Origin: Candidatus Babelota bacterium
GTDB lineage: Bacteria > Babelota > Babeliae > Babelales > CAIQNR01
Length of the DNA stretch: 64,000 nucleotides
Assembly: GCA_965658655.1 (NCBI GenBank)
Contig: CBFHTA010000001.1
Coordinates: 296,722 to 360,721 of the forward strand
Reading direction: 5' to 3'
In this document: one piece after another, positions 2,404-40,518 of the stretch
Position numbering within the stretch: position 1 is the stretch's first letter
Layout: each line of letters opens with the position of its first letter
Made by a program: the position numbers and the translations under genes
The notes under the pieces: generated by a model
Databases searched by the model: none
Seen by the model: only the letters and a program-made list of their open reading frames with translations
Told to the model about the DNA's origin: nothing

Positions 2404-4179
2404 TTATTCTCCTGGAGGGCTTAGAATTCCTAAGCTTTTATTTTGTATTTTTACTATTTCTGCGTATGTTTTCATTTTTACCGGAGTAGTGAGCGATAAA
2501 TTTTTTCTTAGAATTCTCTTTAGCTGCTCTTTGGTTGCACCATTAATTAAAGTAGTTTTGTCAGCTCCTGAAGGCATTGCATTAACTAAACCTGAATTAG
2601 CAAGCTTAATAAGACCATTTACTGTAATAGCATCGAAAGCACACCAAGGAATACTGGTTAATGCAGTGCTGTTTTCAAGGTAAATATCACCAGTAATTTG
2701 CATATTGTAAAAGGCAAGAGGTTCGATTTCAGTAAGGGCAGTATTATTGTCTATGCGTAAATCATTTCCTACAGTAGCTCCTTTAAAGAGTTTATTTGTG
2801 ACCTTTGTAATGTTTGTGTTGTCTATTCTTAAATCGTTACTTACGGTAGCAGACTTAAAAGCTTCTTGTTTGAGAGAAGTAATAGCGGTGTTGTCTAGTC
2901 GAATATCTCCAGTTGTGGACTGTTCAGAGAAAAAATCAGTAATAATAGCATCATCCACCGAAGTTAGACTTGTATTTCCAGTTAAGCTTATTGTTCCACC
3001 AATAGTTCCTCCGCTAAATGCTGTAGCGCTAAGGCTTGTAAGATTTGTATTGCTTTGCATTTGTAGATCACCTGTTACTGTAATCCTATTAAAAGCACTT
3101 GCGGCAATAGTCGTAAGGTTGCTGTTGTTATTAAGTTGTAAATTTCCAGAGACAGTTAATCCACTAAAGGCATTTGCCCCAATAGTTGTGATTCCAAGAT
3201 TATTTAATAAAAGATTCCCTCCTACAGTTAATCCATTAAGAGCATCAGTAGGAATACTCGTAAGAGAAGTATTGCCATCTAGTCGTAAATTGCCTGTAAG
3301 CGAAAGTCCACTAAATGCATCAGTCGAAATAGTAGTAATACCAGTATTATCTTGAAGTTCGAGATTTTCTAGGTTTGGAAATGTTGCAAAAATATCTGCA
3401 GGTATACTCGTTAAGTCGGTATTGCCACCGAGTTTAAGCGTGGTTATTGCAGATTTGTCTATTCCGTCAAGTGATCCATCGAGTCCTGTAAGTTCTTCAA
3501 GGACGCTTTGACCAGCAGCAATGAGTGTAGACCCTGATAAATCGAGTGTTGTGCCACTATCTTGCAAGTAAGTAGCGCTGCTTAAATCTACAGCTGCAGC
3601 AAGTGTAGTAACAGTTTGGGTGCCAGATGTAGAATCAAAAAGAGCTATTCTCGGATAGTCTCGTGCTGTAGCATCATAATACGATGTCCAATTGTCATCA
3701 CTTCCTCCATAAGCTTCTAGAGTTTTTTTAATGTTCCAACTTCCAGAAGCAGTTACCTCTGTTGAGCTGGTTCTTGTATAGTAATGATTTGCTATATTAA
3801 TCGTGGGTCTTATCTCAATCCAATAAGTTCCAGTAGATGGAATTGTTATTGATCCTGTATAGGTTGCGAGCCCTCCATCTCTAGAGTCATAAGCTAAAAC
3901 ACTTCCTAGGTCTGTTCCTACCGTGCCTGCAGAATCTGTGTGTATTCGTATTTCCGTATATTGAATATAGGTAGTTGAAGAAGCGGAGTGTTGGACCTGG
4001 GCACTTGTTATTGTAGTTGCTGATCCTGCTGTAAACTGGTGGGCGTAACGAACATTTCCTCTGATTAGCAAAGTAGAGTTTTGAGCTTCATCAATATTAC
4101 TTAAAAGTGTTATACCTAAAAGGTTTATTGGTAGAATAAATAAAAATGTTAGTAACCTTATATAATGGTTAATTTTCAT
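2404..4179 (-). CDS. Exported leucine-rich-repeat protein (BspA-like repeats), paralog 1
   Basis: Start at MKINHY with AAGGA RBS. Signal peptide, beta-rich N-domain, then ~25-aa repeats LxLxxNxxLTxIxxxAFxGLTVxG. Confidence 0.85.
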   Translation of the reverse strand: MKINHYIRLLTFLFILPINLLGITLLSNIDEAQNSTLLIRGNVRYAHQFTAGSATTITSAQVQHSASSTTYIQYTEIRIHTDSAGTVGTDLGSVLAYDSRDGGLATYTGSITIPSTGTYWIEIRPTINIANHYYTRTSSTEVTASGSWNIKKTLEAYGGSDDNWTSYYDATARDYPRIALFDSTSGTQTVTTLAAAVDLSSATYLQDSGTTLDLSGSTLIAAGQSVLEELTGLDGSLDGIDKSAITTLKLGGNTDLTSIPADIFATFPNLENLELQDNTGITTISTDAFSGLSLTGNLRLDGNTSLTSIPTDALNGLTVGGNLLLNNLGITTIGANAFSGLTVSGNLQLNNNSNLTTIAASAFNRITVTGDLQMQSNTNLTSLSATAFSGGTIGGTISLTGNTSLTSVDDAIITDFFSEQSTTGDIRLDNTAITSLKQEAFKSATVSNDLRIDNTNITKVTNKLFKGATVGNDLRIDNNTALTEIEPLAFYNMQITGDIYLENSTALTSIPWCAFDAITVNGLIKLANSGLVNAMPSGADKTTLINGATKEQLKRILRKNLSLTTPVKMKTYAEIVKIQNKSLGILSPPGE

Positions 4180-4280
4180 ATGTTTTCCTTTTTCTATAAA
4201 GAAAAATGTCAATTTAAAAAAGAAGTATTTAACGGTTTGCTTTCTTAGTAGATATTTTGGTGCAGTTGTTTTTGCATTTT

Positions 4281-6497
4281 TTATCCTGCAGCTCCTAAAC
4301 TTTTATTCTGTAATTTTAAAATTTCAGCATACTCTTTCAGCTTTACTGGAGCTGCAAGTGAAGGATTTTTCCTTAAAATTGCTTTGATTTGTTCTTTGGT
4401 TGCGCCATTGGTTAAGGTTGTTTTATCTGCTCCTGCAGTCATTGCATTTACAAGACCAGAGTTAGCAAGTTTGATAATGCCGTTTACCGCTACAGCATCA
4501 AAAGCACACCAAGGGATTCGGGTTAAGGCAGTGGTGTTTTCTAAGTCAATGTCTCCTGTAACTTGCATATTATAAAAGGCTTTCGGTTCTATTTCTGTCA
4601 ATGCTGCGTTAGAAGCTAAAGATAACTCATTGCCTACAATAGTGTCCTTGAATGTTTCGTTAGAAAGTTTTGTGATACCCGTACTATCCATTCTTAAATT
4701 GTTAGTTATGTTAGCTTTTTGAAAAGCAGTAATAGGAACCGTAGTGAGTGCAGCATTATTGTCTACTCTTAAGTCATTGCTTACTAGTGTCTCTTTGAAT
4801 GCACTTTCTTCTAGATTTGTTAATCCTGTGCTATCTAAGCGGATATCTCCTGTGATAGATATTCCCTTAAAGAAAGTATTTAAAATAGTACTGGGTATTG
4901 TCTCTAAAGAGCTGTTTCCTGTTAAACTTAAACTACCCGTAAGGTTTACTCCTTCAAATGCATTTTCGTTAAGGGTGGTTAACGCGGTGTTTCCTGTTAC
5001 TTCTAAATCTCCAGTGACGGTAAGACCGTTAAACGCATTTTCGCCAATGCTCGTTAAAGAGGCATTATTATTTATTTTTACATTTCCAGAGACCGTTGCT
5101 CCATTGAAAGCATTTTCAGATAATGAGGTAAGCCCTGTATTTTGTACTTCTAAGTCAGTATTAATGGTGGTAGTTTCAAAACCGTTGGTTGGTAGCGTGG
5201 CTAATGCAGAGTTATCGTCTAGACATAATGTTCCAAAAGTTGCGCCATTAAAAGCATTTGTAGCGATAGTTTCTAAAGCAGTGTTCCCATCAAGGCGTGT
5301 GGTGCCTGTGACTTCAATTCCATTAAAAGCATTTTCTGGAAGTGTTGTGAGGCCAGTATTACCATTAAGTTGTAAGTTTCCGCCTACTGTTAGTCCATTA
5401 AAGGTGTTTGCAGGAATTGTTGTAAGAGCAGTGTTGCCATCAATGCGTAAATTTCCTGTTATTGTTAATCCCGTAAAGGCTCCAGAAGCAATTGTTGTAA
5501 GAGAAGTATTGCTATCAATGCGTAATGTTCCCGAAACAGTAAGTCCATTCAAGCCGTTTTCTGGGAGTGTTGTTAAACTTGTATTCGCATCTAAACGTAA
5601 ATCGGTAACCGTTAAATTATTAAATGCATCTGCTGTAATAGTTGTTAATCCAGTATTTCCATGGAGCTCTAATGTTTCTAAATGAGTAAAAGTGGCAAAT
5701 ATGTCTGCAGGAATGGTCGTTAAACTTGTATTTCCGCCAAGTTTAAGAGTGGTAACTGCTGTTTTATCAATGCCATCAAGAGATCCATCTAATCCTGTTA
5801 ACTCTTCAAGAGCATTTTGACCTTGATCGCTTATTGTAGAACCAGAAAGATCAAGCGTGGTTCCATTGTCAGTAAGCCACGGAGAAGCACTTAAATCGAC
5901 AGCTGCAGCTAGAGTGGTTATGGTTTGGGTGTCTGGAACAACATTACTTGTACCTTGTAATGAAAATTTTGGATATTGGTAAGGGGTTCCTGTAAAATAG
6001 TTCCAAGTGCTTGAGTCACTTCCACTTGCTATTTTATCTTTTTTAACTGTCCATCCTTCGGCGCTCCCTGTGGCAGAAGTAGAAGCTGTTGTTGTGTAGT
6101 AATGATTTGCAATTGCTGCTGTTGGATAAATTTCGAACCAGTAGGTTCCTGCAGCTGGTATTTCTACTTCACCGCTGTATGTTATGACATTGCTTCCATC
6201 AATTGACACATAAGAAAGTGTCCCTAAGAGCGATCCGACTGTGTCGTCTGAGTCGCTATGAATTCTAATGGCTGTTGAGGAAGGGTATTTTTGTGCCCCA
6301 GAAACTTGGCTCTGTGCGGTTGTGATAGTTGCAGCGCTTCCTGCTGTAAATTGATGAGCGTAACGAACATTGCTTCGTACTATCCAAGAGGTGGTTTGTC
6401 CTGTTGTTTCATTCATGTTGGTAAAAAGTGTTTCACACTAAAGTTGTTGAAACACAAAGAGCATGCTTAAAGATAGTAAACTTTTCCAGGGCTTCAT
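4281..6497 (-). CDS. Exported leucine-rich-repeat protein, paralog 2; signal peptide interrupted by in-frame TAG (possible pseudogene)
   Basis: ORF 4281..6416 extends in frame to ATG 6497 (AAGGAG RBS): MKPWKSLLSLSMLFVFQQL*CETLFTNMNET. Same architecture as paralog 1, with more repeats. Confidence 0.8.
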
Positions 6498-33621: not shown

Positions 33622-34035
33622 ATGAAAAAGCAATTAGTTTTTTTAGTCATAGTATTGTTAGCAGCAAAGAATGTTTTTCCTTCTGCTCCTCCTCCTCAGT
33701 ATCAACACCTTGAGCATAGTGCTGGTCCTTGTGGGAAAGATGCAATTGTTTCTGCGCCACCATCTTTAGTTATAGATAAATATGATCCAACAAAAGAAGT
33801 CCTAAAAGGTGAAAATAAAGCGGCTGTTTATGTTGTTGAAAATTCATCTTGTGTATGTTTATGTCCTATTAAAGTAAGTATTATTCCAGTTTTGCATGGT
33901 ATTACTACACGATTGTCCTTTGGTTTATTTGGTGCAGCGGATAGTACTATAACCGAAGAAAATAAACATGCAGATTTTGTTGATCAGGCTTCGTATCTTT
34001 CTGTTGACGATGACATGGGAAAAAAGAAAGCATGA
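33622..34035 (+). CDS. Hypothetical exported protein
   Basis: Signal peptide MKKQLVFLVIVLL; GAAAGG RBS. Confidence 0.6.
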   Translation: MKKQLVFLVIVLLAAKNVFPSAPPPQYQHLEHSAGPCGKDAIVSAPPSLVIDKYDPTKEVLKGENKAAVYVVENSSCVCLCPIKVSIIPVLHGITTRLSFGLFGAADSTITEENKHADFVDQASYLSVDDDMGKKKA

Positions 34036-36064: not shown

Positions 36065-36092
36065 AAAACCCACTGTTTCTCGGTGGGTTTTT
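36065..36092 (+). terminator. Rho-independent terminator-like hairpin
   Basis: AAAACCCACTG pairs with CGGTGGGTTTTT. Confidence 0.7.
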
Positions 36093-36153
36093 CGTTGTTT
36101 ACATTATTTCCTATTTAAGGCAAACTGACCGCTATAGTGTGTAGGAGAGCTCC

Positions 36154-37653
36154 ATGAAAAAACTTATTCTTGTATTATTGTCTGTGTCGTTATTAATAGG
36201 CTCATTCTTATTTGTTTCTAAAGCAAATTCCTTTAAATCTTCGGTTCCTTTAGCGAGCTCATCAATAGCTCCTTCAATGAATGATTTTAGTCCTTCTAAA
36301 AAGATCGCTCAGTGTTCTTCTTCTGGTCAAAAAGAACGTCATGGTGCATTTGTAGTTGTCAGTGCGGGAACTACTGATGATGGTAAGGGTAAGATTTGTG
36401 ATTACTTGGCAAAAGATGCTTTCTTTTCTGTTCGATCTCAGGGAACACTTCCTGAAGGTCACAGAGTGCAAAAGAATGGAAAAACATATGTTCTCCATCA
36501 TATTCCGGTAGCGATTCTTACACCGCATGTAAAATGTTATCTGGCACCGGGAATGGTCATTGACCCCAAATTACTTTTTCAAGAAATAGATGATTTACAA
36601 AAGCAAGGTATAAATCTTGATGATCGTTTGAAAATTTCTACGGCAGCTCATTTATTAATGCCATATCATGTGCAGATCGATAATCTTGGTAGAAAAACAA
36701 AACGACGCAAGGGTGCTGCAGGAGTTCGTCGTGGTGCAGGAGCCGCTTCATCGGATAAACGCTTAGGTTTGGGAATTCGTATTGCAGATTTGTGGGGAGA
36801 AGATTTCCCTATTGATCTCAAAGAAAAATTGAAAATTATTAATGAAACTCTTACCAAGGTATATGGAGCAAAGCCTGTGGCGTATAAGCCTTTACTAAAA
36901 GAGCTTATGGAGTACAAGGAAAAATTTGAGCCTTATGTTCGGGACCGTGTTGAATTAAAACTAAACCAGCTTTTAAGAAAACGTAAAAAAGGAATCTTTG
37001 AAGGTGCCCATGGTACATTTCTTGATATTACGCATGGTATTTATCCATATACTGCTCCTACCGATACCACTGCTTCTGGAATAGTTGCAAATGCTGGTGT
37101 AGGACCGTCTAAGATCGATCATACTTTGGGTGTAGTGAAAGCCTATGCTACATGTGAAGGCGATGGTCCGTTTACAACAGAAATTAAAGATCCAGCAATT
37201 ACTCAGCATTTTAGAGATAAAAATAAAGCACTTTCTGATCCAGATAGATATCGTTATGGTTGGCTTGATGCTGTTATGGTTCGTCAAGCTATGTTTATCA
37301 ATGGAATGGACTCTATTGTAATTAGTCGACTAGATGATTTAGATGGACTAGATAAAATAAAAGTTTGTATCGATTACGATTATAAAGAGAATCCTGAAGA
37401 TACTGAAGTACAGCATTTCGACTATCCACCGCCTAGAATTAAGCAGTTACGGGAGGTTACACCGCATTATGTTGAGTTTGATGGGTGGAAAGAATCAACC
37501 AAAAATGCAAAGCACATTTCGCAGTTACCTTTGAATGCACGTGTGTTTGTTAAACGTCTAGAAGCTTTATTTGCGACACCTGTAAGCATTGTTTCTGTTG
37601 GCCCTCGTCAAGATCAAACAATTTTAGTGAATGATTTCTTTAGATACATTTAA
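36154..37653 (+). CDS. Divergent adenylosuccinate-synthetase-fold protein with N-terminal signal peptide
   Basis: DDGKGKICD, GH, EGAHG, GVVKAY, GWLD and SVGP give the PurA fold, but the IMP- and Asp-binding motifs are altered and there is a ~63-aa N-extension. Confidence 0.85.
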   Translation: MKKLILVLLSVSLLIGSFLFVSKANSFKSSVPLASSSIAPSMNDFSPSKKIAQCSSSGQKERHGAFVVVSAGTTDDGKGKICDYLAKDAFFSVRSQGTLPEGHRVQKNGKTYVLHHIPVAILTPHVKCYLAPGMVIDPKLLFQEIDDLQKQGINLDDRLKISTAAHLLMPYHVQIDNLGRKTKRRKGAAGVRRGAGAASSDKRLGLGIRIADLWGEDFPIDLKEKLKIINETLTKVYGAKPVAYKPLLKELMEYKEKFEPYVRDRVELKLNQLLRKRKKGIFEGAHGTFLDITHGIYPYTAPTDTTASGIVANAGVGPSKIDHTLGVVKAYATCEGDGPFTTEIKDPAITQHFRDKNKALSDPDRYRYGWLDAVMVRQAMFINGMDSIVISRLDDLDGLDKIKVCIDYDYKENPEDTEVQHFDYPPPRIKQLREVTPHYVEFDGWKESTKNAKHISQLPLNARVFVKRLEALFATPVSIVSVGPRQDQTILVNDFFRYI

Positions 37654-37803: not shown

Positions 37804-37992
37804 TTATTGCCAAATAATAACACCGTATTTAAACGTGAGTAGCGCAAAGAAGACGACCGCGTGTGAGCGATATGTACGCTTTAGTTTGATCAGAGTGATC
37901 AAAAAACTAAGATAAGAGAAGCGTGAAAGTTTAGATTTCGGTCGATCGGGCGGTATAGAATTTCGCAATTCATTCGAAGATAACAATATCAT
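37804..37992 (-). CDS. Small hypothetical protein
   Basis: AAGGAG RBS before MILLSS; follows directly after the 660-aa gene. Confidence 0.35.
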   Translation of the reverse strand: MILLSSNELRNSIPPDRPKSKLSRFSYLSFLITLIKLKRTYRSHAVVFFALLTFKYGVIIWQ

Positions 37993-38015: not shown

Positions 38016-39998
38016 TTACTTCTTGTCAGTATACGCTTTCAGCTTTCTAATAACAAGAGAAGGGTTGTATTCGCTGCACTCAAGGTTGTACCAATCACTT
38101 TTTTTGCATGATTGGAAAAAGCGTGAGAATCTATTTATCCAAATTCCATGATGGTATTTACTTAAGTCAAAATTTGGGTGTGTTTTATCTGTAATATGAG
38201 ATAACATAACCACAGGAAGGTGTACTGCGTGAATACCATGTTGTTCAAACCATGGTTTATGACTGTAATAATTAAGATTAAACGTTGCCAAAATGAGCGG
38301 TTCTTGGGCAGATCCTAAGCCTGCGAAAAGTCCTCGATAAAACCAACAATCAAGAAGTGAGGGGAGATAAGCACCTATGAGAGCATGCGGAAGTTCTTTT
38401 TTAATAATGGTTTTTAGTTTAATTCCTAATTGCTTTGCGGCATCTTGGAGTGTAGAAAAATACTCATGAAAACGGTTATTTTTAAATAAGAATGTTATAC
38501 GTTTGTTTATTGTGTTTAGTTTCTTGAGGTTCGATTGTTTTGTGGTGCGAATATAGAGGTTCCAGGAAACATCAGAAAAATCCATAAGATTCGTATAGAC
38601 AGCCGCTTGCTCTGGTGCATGATACATTTCAAAATCAAAAAAGATACCACCGATAGGAACATGTTTATCTGCATGCTTTTTCCAGTGAGTTATAAACTTT
38701 TTAAATGGGTCAATGAATTCTTCTTTCCAGAAGTGTTGATCATCGAGTGGAGAAGGAATCTTTGAGAATTCTTTCCCATAAACATTCCTTACTGGATGAG
38801 TAACAGGTGACTTTCCATAGTTATTGGTAAGATCGAAACCTACAAAAAGAGATGGTTTTTCTTGTTCTCTGTAAGTTCTTGCAAGTTCTTTAGTAAAATG
38901 ACGAATTCCTGTGGTAACTTGTTCGTATTCTTTTTCTGAGCGCATAGCCTGCTTGCTCAAAAACCATTCCGGATTAAATGAGGTCCATAAAAGATTAACG
39001 TTGCTTTTTTTTAGGTAGTCTACAGCAGTTTTCCAATTATTTTTAAGTGGTTCAATTTCCATCCAGGCGCAAGAAATTTTTTTGTGAAAAAGTGGATGTG
39101 CGGCTGCTGTATAAAGTTTTGACTCTTGTGGAAGCACGTTTGGTGGTAACGTAATTTTTACAGGACTTGCTGTTGGTGATTGACCGGTTGTAAGTGTGGT
39201 ATGTAACTGAAGCAAAGTATGCTGAAGAACGGTAAGGAATTTCTTTCTATCTTTCCAGTCGTAAGGAGAGAAGAACATATTTTCTTCAAGATCGACACCT
39301 TTAAAACTGCTGTCTGGCCCTAAAACAAGAGCTGCATGTTTATGGGGTTTTACATACAATCCCAAAGGCAAAATGCTTTCTAAATAACTTTTTTTACGAT
39401 CGGCTGGAAGCGTAAGAGGTTTATGCTCTAATTCACTTAAAGATGAGAGTCGACAACGAAGAGGTTTTTTTTGACCCTTATATGAAACGCGAGGATAAAA
39501 CAAAGAAGTTCTGTACGTCGAGCTACGGTCATTGTCTGTTGAAAAAATACACGGGCCTAGATCATTTGTAATGGTACACAGTTGATGATTGATATTTAGT
39601 TGGTTAAAAAATCCACAAAGTGCATGAGCAACTTGGGGATTTTGTGGAAGCTTGCCTGGGAAAAGAAGTGCTAGAAGACCTTTTTCTTTTTTGGCGTACG
39701 CTTTAACTAAAGAGAGTATTCTTGTGGTTAAAGGACTTTTGGTTGATGCACCACTGTTTTTAAAAAAGTAAGGATCGAGGAATAAAAAAACAGCGTCAAA
39801 GTTTTGTAAGCTGTTTGGAGGACTATAGAAATTTGCAAAAGAGCAGTTGAAACCAACAGATTCTGCCAGTGCTTGTAATTGTGAATAACTTGCCTGTGAT
39901 TTTCCGCTTGTATCTAGAATAAGTAATTTTTTTTGTGGTGTTTTTGCGCAGAGCTGTACAAAATTTAAAAACAGTAAGTAATACTTTAACTTTTTCAT
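38016..39998 (-). CDS. Exported hypothetical protein, C-terminal half possibly a glycoside-hydrolase-like TIM barrel
   Basis: Signal peptide; PSPLD..FW, GGIFFDFEMY and aromatic-rich alpha/beta pattern. Confidence 0.55.
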   Translation of the reverse strand: MKKLKYYLLFLNFVQLCAKTPQKKLLILDTSGKSQASYSQLQALAESVGFNCSFANFYSPPNSLQNFDAVFLFLDPYFFKNSGASTKSPLTTRILSLVKAYAKKEKGLLALLFPGKLPQNPQVAHALCGFFNQLNINHQLCTITNDLGPCIFSTDNDRSSTYRTSLFYPRVSYKGQKKPLRCRLSSLSELEHKPLTLPADRKKSYLESILPLGLYVKPHKHAALVLGPDSSFKGVDLEENMFFSPYDWKDRKKFLTVLQHTLLQLHTTLTTGQSPTASPVKITLPPNVLPQESKLYTAAAHPLFHKKISCAWMEIEPLKNNWKTAVDYLKKSNVNLLWTSFNPEWFLSKQAMRSEKEYEQVTTGIRHFTKELARTYREQEKPSLFVGFDLTNNYGKSPVTHPVRNVYGKEFSKIPSPLDDQHFWKEEFIDPFKKFITHWKKHADKHVPIGGIFFDFEMYHAPEQAAVYTNLMDFSDVSWNLYIRTTKQSNLKKLNTINKRITFLFKNNRFHEYFSTLQDAAKQLGIKLKTIIKKELPHALIGAYLPSLLDCWFYRGLFAGLGSAQEPLILATFNLNYYSHKPWFEQHGIHAVHLPVVMLSHITDKTHPNFDLSKYHHGIWINRFSRFFQSCKKSDWYNLECSEYNPSLVIRKLKAYTDKK

Positions 39999-40116: not shown

Positions 40117-40518
40117 TTATAAAAGCGATCTATGTTTGTTTAAAAATAGTTTTCCTTGTTCAGATTGTAGATAAGCTAAAAGACATATTTCTGGTGTAAG
40201 ATTAGGATAGCGTTTGCGAACTTTGGTTAAGGCAAGAATGAGTGCTCCTGTTCCTTGTACTGCATCTCCTACTGAGTGGAGTATCTCTTCTGTATCATCA
40301 ACTTCTTTAGCAGCCACTGCATTTAAAAGATTAGGAATAACAGAGTGTAGAAGAGTACCAACAATCAATGATGCCGAGTCTGGTTCTTCTTTTTTATCTT
40401 CTTTTTTCTTTATCGTGAGTTTTTCTGTGACCGGTGGTTTGCGCTTTCTTAAAGTTGTCATGGAAAGAGCTGGGGTAGTTGCACATAAAAGTAGAAAAAA
40501 TAACATAAAACGTTTCAT
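40117..40518 (-). CDS. Hypothetical exported protein
   Basis: AAGGAG RBS; signal peptide followed by RKRK. Confidence 0.65.
   Translation of the reverse strand: MKRFMLFFLLLCATTPALSMTTLRKRKPPVTEKLTIKKKEDKKEEPDSASLIVGTLLHSVIPNLLNAVAAKEVDDTEEILHSVGDAVQGTGALILALTKVRKRYPNLTPEICLLAYLQSEQGKLFLNKHRSLL

Follow-up and report, generated by a model that had tools for sequence, protein, structure and literature searches.

A relative of adenylosuccinate synthetase in Dependentiae that has a signal-like N-terminus, keeps its GTP site and has lost its substrate contacts

What is the role of a gene that encodes a full PurA fold behind a signal-like N-terminus, in a genome where a search for purB finds nothing? 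The gene lies in a window of 64 kb, the whole stretch of DNA analysed (64,000 nt), from a 0.93-Mb genome (G000) that MnmG matches place in the Dependentiae (Babeliales) and that is 95 % complete. It is the only PurA homologue of its genome. Profile searches of this 95 % complete genome found no Lyase_1 (purB), IMPDH or HAM1 (ITPase), and the sole PRTase match, at 37 bits, appears by eye to be ComF-like. A separate canonical purA or purB, which an earlier reading made from the DNA letters (the sequence-only reading) had suggested looking for, was found in neither case. The genome does carry four tandem TLC (nucleotide) transporter genes. According to Yeoh et al. 2016 (PMC4776705), Dependentiae have no nucleotide biosynthesis of their own and depend on nucleotides that they import from the host.

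The open reading frame occupies 36154..37653, as the sequence-only reading had it, lies on the forward strand, matches PF00709 and encodes 499 amino acids followed by a stop codon. A Shine-Dalgarno sequence, AGGAGA, at 36143..36148 (+) is separated by 5 nt from the ATG at 36154. Separating it from the transketolase gene is a terminator-like hairpin at 36065..36091 (+), whose 11-pair stem includes 5 GC pairs and runs into a T-rich tail; the hairpin suggests that the purA-like gene forms its own transcription unit. Another terminator-like hairpin, a weak site with a 7-pair stem, lies about 200 nt 3' of the stop codon at 37859..37879 (+). An Rfam scan of the 64-kb window gave zero matches at gathering thresholds. 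A search for sequencing runs brought up marine-plankton DNA of one study, one run of which may be the source, and no RNA.

The first 24 residues (36154..36225, +) resemble a signal peptide, with MKK, an 18-residue hydrophobic run and S-K-A at positions 22-24; AlphaFold2 models a helix at residues 2-19. They are followed by a Ser-rich linker at residues 25-64 (36226..36345, +; 12 Ser in 40 residues, counted on the translation) that is predicted to be disordered, pLDDT being below 50 for residues 18-60. A signal peptide and a Ser-rich linker had been noted ahead of the PurA fold, and a signal-like N-terminus and the linker are there; the signal-like N-terminus is conserved, while the linker is found in the closest relatives P0001-P0006 only and is missing from the alignment of P0007-P0033. 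A crude signal heuristic is positive in 26 of 33 relatives and is not very specific, with about 38 % of the ORFs in the same genome passing it; the seven misses are, for the most part, genes that were called too short or too long. The 18-residue run could be a membrane anchor instead of a cleaved signal. A lipoprotein was rejected, as the alignment of the purA-like relatives contains no conserved lipobox Cys. Deeg et al. 2019 (PMC6561590) give signal peptides for 44 % of CDS in one cultured member of the Dependentiae.

One could argue that this N-terminus is an annotation artefact, that the true start lies downstream and that the protein is cytoplasmic. After the hydrophobic segment the frame does offer one start, the ATG of residue 42, but no Shine-Dalgarno sequence precedes it whereas a strong one precedes the first ATG, which upholds the upstream start chosen in the sequence-only reading. 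Moreover, a hydrophobic N-terminus is present in every full-length relative tabulated, P0008 and P0012 have no Met between it and the fold, and the signal-bearing PurA genes of two other genomes of the order (G034 and G170, discussed below) have no ATG, GTG or TTG between N-extension and fold. We find a downstream start hardly credible, and the hydrophobic N-terminus, conserved in every full-length relative, is predicted to be translated.

The remainder of the protein, residues 67-499 (36352..37650, +), is an adenylosuccinate-synthetase fold by PF00709 and Foldseek. The PF00709 match covers residues 67-490 and profile positions 1-416 of 416 (E 1e-112), the AlphaFold2 model has a mean pLDDT of 86.5 with a confident fold from residue 65 to the end, and the best Foldseek matches are bacterial PurA structures with TM 0.90-0.95, in agreement with the full PurA fold claimed earlier. 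The protein nevertheless scores under both purA equivalog cut-offs (377.7 vs 402 for NF002223 and 347.1 vs 395.55 for TIGR00184).

Residue assignments were anchored on a HMMER alignment to chains 3hid and 1ade, the E. coli number being the query number minus 62. As to roles in the E. coli enzyme, we take N38, T128, T129, T239 and R143 (the latter from the partner subunit) to contact the IMP 5'-phosphate, Q224 to be a further IMP contact, and T300-T301-G-R303-x-R305 to form the aspartate loop, with which we group the T-R-V-G segment. The residues for GTP binding and catalysis are retained. The P-loop G72-T-T-D-D-G-K-G-K80 (36367..36393, +) retains D13 (D75), G15, K16, G17 and K18, with GKGK at 77-80; it differs at G12 (now T) and E14 (now D), both present in 43/43 canonical PurA sequences. 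G40 and H41 are kept as G102 and H103 within Q96-G-T-L-P-E-G-H103 (36439..36462, +). The guanine-specificity motif, canonically T-K/R-L-D with K/R331, reads S391-R-L-D394 (37324..37335, +), with D333 kept as D394, and the second guanine-binding motif, S414-x-G-P, reads S481-V-G-P484 (37594..37605, +).

The contacts to the substrate, on the other hand, are replaced. N38 has become P100 in the segment that still carries G40 and H41. Within 36718..36780 (+) the alignment gives A189-G190-V191 for G127-T128-T129 and G205 for R143; R209 corresponds to R147, and R192 in the same segment is conserved in 39/45 family sequences. Further on, H286 is aligned with Q224 and A301 with T239 (FEGAHGT...YPYTAPTD, 37009..37065, +), and T333-C-E-G336 with T-R-V-G (37150..37161, +). 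The former aspartate loop GATTGRRRR is now L360-S-D-P-D-R-Y-R-Y368, in the stretch L360-S-D-P-D-R-Y-R-Y-G-W370 (37231..37263, +). Its alignment is ambiguous by one residue, since HMMER and MAFFT place a one-residue gap differently and R365 falls at R303 or R304; under both placements R305 is replaced by Y366 and R306 is kept as R367. The alignment to 3hid and 1ade confirms both the kept and the replaced residues that the sequence-only reading had listed by eye, including the change of TRVG to TCEG and, within the one-residue ambiguity, the loss of the aspartate loop.

We then asked how these positions behave among the relatives, using 45 family sequences for active-site tallies, 50 for MAFFT conservation and 34 rows on the tree. 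The canonical residue is kept in none of the 45 sequences at N38, T128, T239 and R305, in one at T129, in six at R143 and in seven at Q224, compared with 42 at D333 and 45 at S414; both the S and the G of the SVGP motif are found in 45/45. The MAFFT column of R303 has R in 0/50 sequences. At the position of N38 the family has V (9), P (8), S (6), I (6) and others, and conservation across the 45-50 members is among the lowest at the positions of the former pocket. The residues that would hold the IMP phosphate and aspartate are thus replaced clade-wide. As a further reference we used 131 canonical cluster representatives, in which 45 positions reach a conservation of at least 95 %; of these positions the 50 family sequences keep 20 at 90 % or more and lose 14 to below 50 %, N38, T129, T239, R303 and R305 included. 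This pattern of retention and loss is not chance. Five residues, G72, R203, E267, S301 and Q378, are conserved in the family and rare in canonical PurA; together with R192 they could be part of a new site.

The GTP site has a more uneven history. On the tree, D13 is kept in 16/34 family rows vs 57/57 rows outside the family (at least 8 changes), K16 in 19/34 (at least 5 changes) and H41 in 25/34 (at least 8 changes). The full set of five GTP and catalytic residues occurs in 12/34 rows, and these include all 8 rows of the sub-clade to which our protein belongs, where D13, K16, K18, G40, H41, D333 and S414 are kept throughout, across about 60 % identity. Such retention is as compatible with an active enzyme as with a binding protein. 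At the other extreme stands genus g4 (L031-L033), in which the P-loop is lost (the sequence there is TNDYQTV), D333 is gone from its motif (now FNGLHLL or FNGLQLL) and SVGP is without its proline. Of 12 pairs of purA-like genes, 11 have a dN/dS of 0.056-0.25 and one is saturated; in g4, the most degenerate genus, it is 0.056-0.12, with the lowest value of 0.056 at a dS of 0.53.

The purA-like gene is carried by the whole family. PF00709 is found in 16/16 genomes of the GTDB family and in 5/245 other genomes of the order, at one locus per family genome (G006 has two matches in one frame), while Lyase_1 (PurB) is found in 0/16 of the family genomes. The purA-like clade is monophyletic (34 rows, SH-aLRT 100, stem 0.41). 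The order comEC-like ... purA-like ... CNNM-rpoD-dnaG is conserved in 5 of 7 loci compared; in L015 and L012 the contig stops to one side of the locus. Directly 5' of the gene these seven loci have either transketolase or a pair of genes, one for a product of about 330 aa and the other for a putative membrane protein of about 150 aa, and no conserved functional neighbour (operon partner) was found among them. The purA-like gene is therefore at a fixed chromosomal position and under purifying selection.

Some other Babeliales have a PurA that combines a similar N-terminus with a canonical active site. G034, G170 and G223, of the same order, encode PurA that passes the equivalog cut-off and has the same kind of hydrophobic N-extension; the metagenomic sequences P0261, P0263, P0283 and P0113 have such an N-extension too. 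In G034 and G170 there is no start codon between the N-extension and the P-loop. Unlike the purA-like protein, the PurA of G034, G170 and G223 has all canonical active-site residues intact. Its gene adjoins purB in G034 and G223, and in G034 also fumC and a HAM1 ITPase gene. The purA-like clade is sister (support 96) to a group that contains all four signal-bearing canonical PurAs on the tree, namely G034, P0261, P0263 and P0283; G170, G223 and P0113 were left out of it.

Because the substrate pocket has been dismantled, the purA-like protein almost certainly has a job other than adenylosuccinate synthesis. The reading that we favor, with a confidence only slightly above even, is that of a Sec-targeted PurA descendant that has ceased to make adenylosuccinate, is still likely to bind GTP and has a role independent of the old pocket. 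The ancestor of the family would have had a working PurA that was exported already; after the loss of its pathway, this PurA would have been kept for a new role that did not need the old substrate pocket; the pocket would now be drifting, and D13, K16 and H41 would have been lost repeatedly in sister lineages. Any adenylosuccinate made would have no onward route, since no purB or other Lyase_1 was found in any of the 16 family genomes. With the P-loop, H41 and both guanine motifs invariant in the sub-clade, the protein most likely still binds GTP or GDP, which an intracellular parasite would draw from its host, and it may hydrolyze GTP. We expect it to bind nucleotides or serve as a scaffold outside the cytoplasm, and not to be a ligase. 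It would be exported to the periplasm, the cell surface or, once secreted, the host.

A possible though doubtful alternative is that the sub-clade holds a neofunctionalised enzyme, in which GTP would drive phosphorylation or ligation of a new, non-IMP substrate, an acidic pocket being suited to a basic amine or a host molecule. The seven GTP and catalytic residues invariant in the sub-clade and the family-specific conserved residues would agree with it, and so would the near relatives: P0001-P0011 have, by eye, identical P-loop, GH, SRLD and SVG strings, and among the seven closest sequences, P0001-P0007, TCEGD(G/S) is found in 5/7 and [DE][RK]YRYGW in 6/7. The acidic residues themselves (E335, D337, D362 and D364), however, are common only to these seven. 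The next sister group, P0008-P0011, has the same P-loop but a non-acidic pocket, with THLGxG and TSPEL in their places, so a conserved new pocket does not accompany the conserved GTP site. In addition, the catalytic residues are dispensable elsewhere in a clade under purifying selection and no conserved neighbour gene points to a pathway. The sequence-only reading therefore stands as to an exported-type PurA fold with its GTP site kept and its substrate contacts gone, but not as to a pocket remodelled to take another substrate, for instance a basic amine: the acidic residues end at P0007, the pocket is variable family-wide, and relatives under purifying selection have repeatedly lost the catalytic residues. 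That reading had named unconserved decay as an outcome that would speak against it; the pocket substitutions are indeed unconserved in homologues, but the low dN/dS shows that the gene is not decaying.

A family-wide pseudoenzyme would have no meaningful nucleotide binding and a structural, scaffolding or host-binding role (e.g. as a decoy pairing with another protein), the intact P-loop reflecting slower decay. The low dN/dS of g4 despite its lost motifs, and the 12/34 rows that keep all five residues, would favor this; yet in the sub-clade adjoining positions vary and the P-loop and both guanine motifs do not, which argues for constraint on nucleotide binding there and makes a family-wide pseudoenzyme quite unlikely in our view. 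Weak residual adenylosuccinate synthetase activity on host IMP in an extracytoplasmic location, completed to AMP by a host lyase, could draw on the intact fold and catalytic residues and on the exported-looking canonical PurA found with PurB in other Babeliales families. We consider it very improbable given that R305 and all the presumed IMP 5'-phosphate contacts (N38, T128, T129, T239 and R143) are replaced, that the score is under both equivalog cut-offs and that purB was not found in any of the 16 family genomes. A broader and unlikely scenario is that some Dependentiae export functional PurA, PurB, fumarase and ITPase (the set of the G034 operon), converting host IMP or ITP to AMP in the periplasm or the host and feeding the adenine-nucleotide pool that their transporters draw on; this system would have been dismantled in the purA-like family and the exported PurA kept as a GTP-binding effector or sensor. 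Such an effector might report or capture host guanine nucleotides or interfere with the dimeric adenylosuccinate synthetase of the host, examples that share, jointly with the export scenario, its low probability.

Under our favored reading of a PurA descendant with a role independent of the old pocket, one whole Dependentiae family keeps a PurA-derived gene (16/16 genomes) with an export-type signal, no downstream lyase and an old pocket released from constraint. The clade would be a clean natural example of an enzyme fold repurposed after pathway loss, with exported-type canonical PurA and PurB in sister families as living intermediates of the repurposing. If the exported canonical enzymes are active, this would suggest that Dependentiae manipulate the purine pools of their hosts or process nucleotides in the periplasm. 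The purA-like gene is named 'adenylosuccinate synthase' by automatic annotation, a name that would wrongly credit these genomes with the IMP-to-AMP step. Text searches of the literature found nothing on PurA in Dependentiae or on exported PurA, a query on periplasmic forms bringing up an Asaia secretome catalogue (PMC12502724), and nothing relevant on a PurA pseudoenzyme; PurA genes adjoining ART-like genes in other bacteria are not pertinent.

How does the protein compare with known systems? PurA itself (EC 6.3.4.4; PF00709, TIGR00184; PDB 1ade, 3hid, 6bs7) has the same full-length fold at 32-36 % identity. The P-loop, G40/H41, the (T/S)(K/R)LD motif and the SVGP motif are common to both, whereas the purA-like protein adds the N-terminal signal-like peptide and linker and has the IMP phosphate and base contacts, with roles as presumed above, and the aspartate loop replaced; its 377.7 bits compare with 549-573 bits for canonical Babeliales PurAs, which are over the 402 cut-off. 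PurZ, the succino-aminodeoxyadenylate synthase of phages, has Ser for Asp in the P-loop, is about 350 aa long and uses dGMP as substrate. PurZ and PurZ0 (PDB 7odx, 7vf6) are likewise PurA-fold enzymes with altered substrate specificity, but their chains reach a TM of only 0.70-0.72 to the purA-like protein, which keeps the P-loop Asp. An identity as PurZ, already dismissed in the sequence-only reading, is rejected by D75 and by a score of 69.4 bits with NF038379, against a cut-off of 300 and 362 bits for a true PurZ in G058. As in pseudoenzymes in general, many clade members lack catalytic residues at low dN/dS; unlike pseudoenzymes, the purA-like protein itself keeps D13, K16, K18, H41 and D333.

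The purA-like gene (36154..37653, + strand) encodes 499 aa in the translation of the window, and its ATG is preceded by a Shine-Dalgarno AGGAGA with a 5-nt spacer. Because terminator-like hairpins are found between it and the upstream transketolase gene (36065-36091) and, weaker, at 37859-37879, the gene appears to be transcribed separately. The Pfam family PF00709 matches residues 67-490 over the full profile (E 1e-112). An AlphaFold2 model based on a 64-sequence alignment (mean pLDDT 86.5) has a helix at residues 2-19, disorder over 18-60 and a confidently predicted fold starting at residue 65. The best Foldseek matches are bacterial PurA structures (TM 0.90-0.95), and the PDB titles among them show that K16, R143 and R303 mutants have been studied. 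The protein falls under both NCBIfam purA equivalog cut-offs (377.7 versus 402 and 347.1 versus 395.55).

All full-length relatives start with one or two basic residues followed by a hydrophobic run. A crude heuristic for such an N-terminus, which is not specific and flags membrane proteins too, was positive in 26 of the 33 family members and in 1 of the 87 canonical sequences of our large protein search. The 7 family members that it missed are mostly gene calls starting inside the hydrophobic run or over-extended upstream. In the window protein the hydrophobic run is 18 residues long and may be a signal anchor. The run would not be translated if the start had been mis-called, and there is one further in-frame start after the hydrophobic segment, the ATG at residue 42. 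A mis-called start is unlikely: that ATG has no Shine-Dalgarno sequence whereas the first one has, and P0008 and P0012, the short-N-terminus relatives whose sequence was inspected, have no Met from the hydrophobic run to the fold.

To place active-site residues we aligned the window protein with PDB chains 3hid and 1ade using HMMER; the roles of E. coli PurA residues in the IMP, aspartate and catalytic sites follow the Honzatko/Fromm work. All substitutions listed in the sequence-only reading are present in the window protein: N38>P, G127-T128-T129>A-G-V, R143>G, Q224>H, T239>A and T-R-V-G>T-C-E-G, with D13, K16, K18, G40, H41, D333 and S414-x-G-P retained. The aspartate loop reads S-D-P-D-R-Y-R-Y, where R365 of the window protein could occupy the R303 position because the HMMER and MAFFT alignments differ by one residue. 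The acidic pocket that the same reading described holds for the seven closest sequences (P0001-P0007) and is limited to them: P0008-P0011 have the same P-loop, yet THLGxG and TSPEL replace the acidic-pocket segments.

We compared 50 family sequences with 131 canonical cluster representatives (50 % clusters) at the 45 sites that are at least 95 % conserved in the canonical set. The family retains 20 of these positions at 90 % or more, 11 at 50-90 % and 14 at less than 50 %, 9 of the latter being at or below 10 %. The lost sites are substrate contacts (G12, E14, G36, N38, A39, T129, G134, T239, S241, R303, R305 and neighbours) and have gained no new shared residue except T239>S (86 %); position N38, for instance, is occupied by V9, P8, S6, I6, A4 and T3 (n = 45). 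The guanine motifs are retained (D333 in 42/45, S414 and G416 in 45/45). On the tree, D13 is found in 16/34 family rows and K16 in 19/34, compared to 57/57 outside for both, with at least 8 and 5 changes respectively; H41 is found in 25/34 and also changed at least 8 times. All of D13, K16, K18, H41 and D333 are retained in only 12 of the 34 rows, and the P-loop, D333 and the SVGP proline have all been lost from genus g4, which is sister to the sub-clade of the window. These losses occur under purifying selection: pairs within g4 give a dN/dS of 0.056 (dS 0.53) and 0.10-0.12, those in the P0012-type clade 0.07-0.11, the window paired with its congener 0.12 and more distant pairs up to 0.25, with 1 of 12 pairs saturated. 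The family conserves G72, R203, E267, S301 and Q378, residues that canonical PurA rarely has; R192 is likewise conserved (39/45). Relatives P0012-P0024, P0029 and P0026-P0032 close the PurA fold with sub-clade-specific C-terminal tails (alignment A1, columns 601-663), of which one type reads ...NLLPEGxNPPxQQKW.KC... and another terminates ...NLLPRP(T/S)C; the window protein differs in having no such tail.

The purA-like gene is a family trait. In our survey of 261 genomes of the order, PF00709 was found in all 16 genomes (8 genera) of the window's family, at a single locus each (G006 has two matches in one frame); across the other 20 families it occurs in only 5 of 245 genomes. Lyase_1 was found in 0 of the 16 family genomes and in 6 of 45 sampled genomes of other families. 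The large protein search returned 33 clusters with 43-100 % identity (453-503 aa) ahead of canonical 427-aa PurAs starting at 42 %, and the clade's public source names seen there were all 'adenylosuccinate synthase'. On a tree of 91 rows (90 distinct sequences, P0283 being present twice), a single clade (SH-aLRT 100, stem length 0.41) unites the 29 family rows with 5 other cluster representatives. Its sister group, with a joint support of 96, is composed of 14 distinct canonical PurAs, including all four signal-bearing canonical sequences.

The order comEC-like, purA-like, small secreted protein, CNNM, rpoD, dnaG is conserved in 5 of 7 related loci; in L015 and L012 the contig stops on one side. 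No functional neighbour recurs in all seven. Directly upstream, most relatives (L011, L013, L014, L017, L012, L015) carry a pair of genes of ~150 and ~330 aa, both beginning with a hydrophobic N-terminus, in place of which the window has transketolase. Three neighbouring ORFs in the window have a signal-like N-terminus and no Pfam match: 137 aa (33622-34035, +), 660 aa (38016-39998, −) and 133 aa (40117-40518, −). The 660-aa ORF has no counterpart at the same position in the seven related loci, where the 5 that reach downstream instead encode a small secreted protein (127-187 aa).

The genome holding the window (928,713 bp, 4 contigs, 95 % complete) has an MnmG whose best named relatives are 'Candidatus Babeliales' and 'Candidatus Dependentiae' (~62 % identity). 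The window carries ordinary chromosomal genes (RNR, rpoD, dnaG, mur genes, H+-PPase) and BspA-type leucine-rich-repeat proteins, typical host-interaction candidates, two of which are large and adjacent (602 and 711 aa; 2404-6416, −). Outside the window, four TLC genes (ATP/ADP-type nucleotide transporters, 444-477 aa) lie in tandem (G000:C1:489882-495556), and the genome also encodes two Omp85 and two secretin genes. ADK and NDK are present without a signal-like N-terminus. Genome-wide, the purA-like gene is the sole PF00709 match. No Lyase_1 gene was found in this 95 % complete genome; purB, fumC and aspA are therefore absent and adenylosuccinate would be a dead end in the cell. We likewise found no IMPDH, HAM1 or other IMP-handling enzyme in the genome, and its single PRTase match is weak (37 bits) and ComF-like by eye. 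Passages of Yeoh et al. 2016 (PMC4776705) describe TM6 genomes as devoid of nucleoside biosynthesis.

The small number of canonical PurAs found in other families of the Babeliales also have hydrophobic N-extensions of ~25 aa. Those of genomes G034, G170 (L050, G170:C7 1411-2790) and G223 (L051, G223:C41 1489-2823, −) are above the equivalog cut-offs (551, 573 and 549 bits). A codon check of the first two found no start codon from the N-extension to the P-loop, and in G223 purA adjoins purB and purM. In G034, four co-directional genes (L044, G034:C92 817-5963), each with a hydrophobic signal-like N-extension, encode a class II fumarase (749 bits versus a cut-off of 664.75), the PurA, a HAM1/RdgB ITPase (133 versus 145, marginally under) and PurB (408 versus 326). 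In this other family of the Babeliales, the set may represent a purine-nucleotide cycle that is exported; the source MAG has 3 % contamination, so that the ownership of the contig is provisional. Together with the signal-bearing PurAs, it suggests that exported enzymes of this cycle exist in the phylum and that the window gene is their degenerate descendant. The G172 match to PF00709 is fragmentary, lies at the end of a contig and belongs to a bin with 6 % contamination. That of G058 is a true PurZ (362 bits versus 300), next to genes for a P4-type primase and an HD 5'-deoxynucleotidase-like protein (L034, G058:C80 42-3207). The G058 contig is phage-like, may stem from an aminoadenine (Z-base) genome and was binned together with a Babeliales MAG.

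Most simply, an exported PurA would have lost its pathway in the ancestor of the window's family and been retained for a role independent of the IMP and aspartate pocket. Continued adenylosuccinate synthesis by the window protein, which keeps the fold and the residues D13 and H41, is unlikely with its IMP contacts substituted and no purB found in the genome. A newly specified ligase, as the sequence-only reading proposed, is possible for the window's sub-clade; the family-wide evidence, with no common replacement at nearly all lost sites, does not support it. The nucleotide site is clearly constrained in the sub-clade, so these proteins likely bind GTP or GDP and perhaps hydrolyse GTP, as judged from their residues. 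Host nucleotides would plausibly be present in the periplasm of an intracellular parasite, given that the transporters of its inner membrane draw on them.

Text searches, with subscription journals and supplements outside their scope, returned no published account of PurA in Dependentiae or of an exported PurA; the novelty is a PurA subfamily that is specific to one lineage, probably exported and undergoing erosion of its catalytic residues. PurZ identity was rejected for the window protein (profile score 69 versus a cut-off of 300), and PurZ and PurZ0 structures reach a TM of only 0.70-0.72 in Foldseek. The abundance of signal-like N-termini resembles a known case: of the 802 ORFs in the genome with 100 aa or more, 308 are positive in the crude test, membrane proteins included. 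This lies close to the 44 % of CDS with signal peptides, the predicted secretome, that Deeg et al. 2019 (PMC6561590) report for the cultured Dependentiae Chromulinavorax; they propose export by the Sec route into the periplasm and further out.
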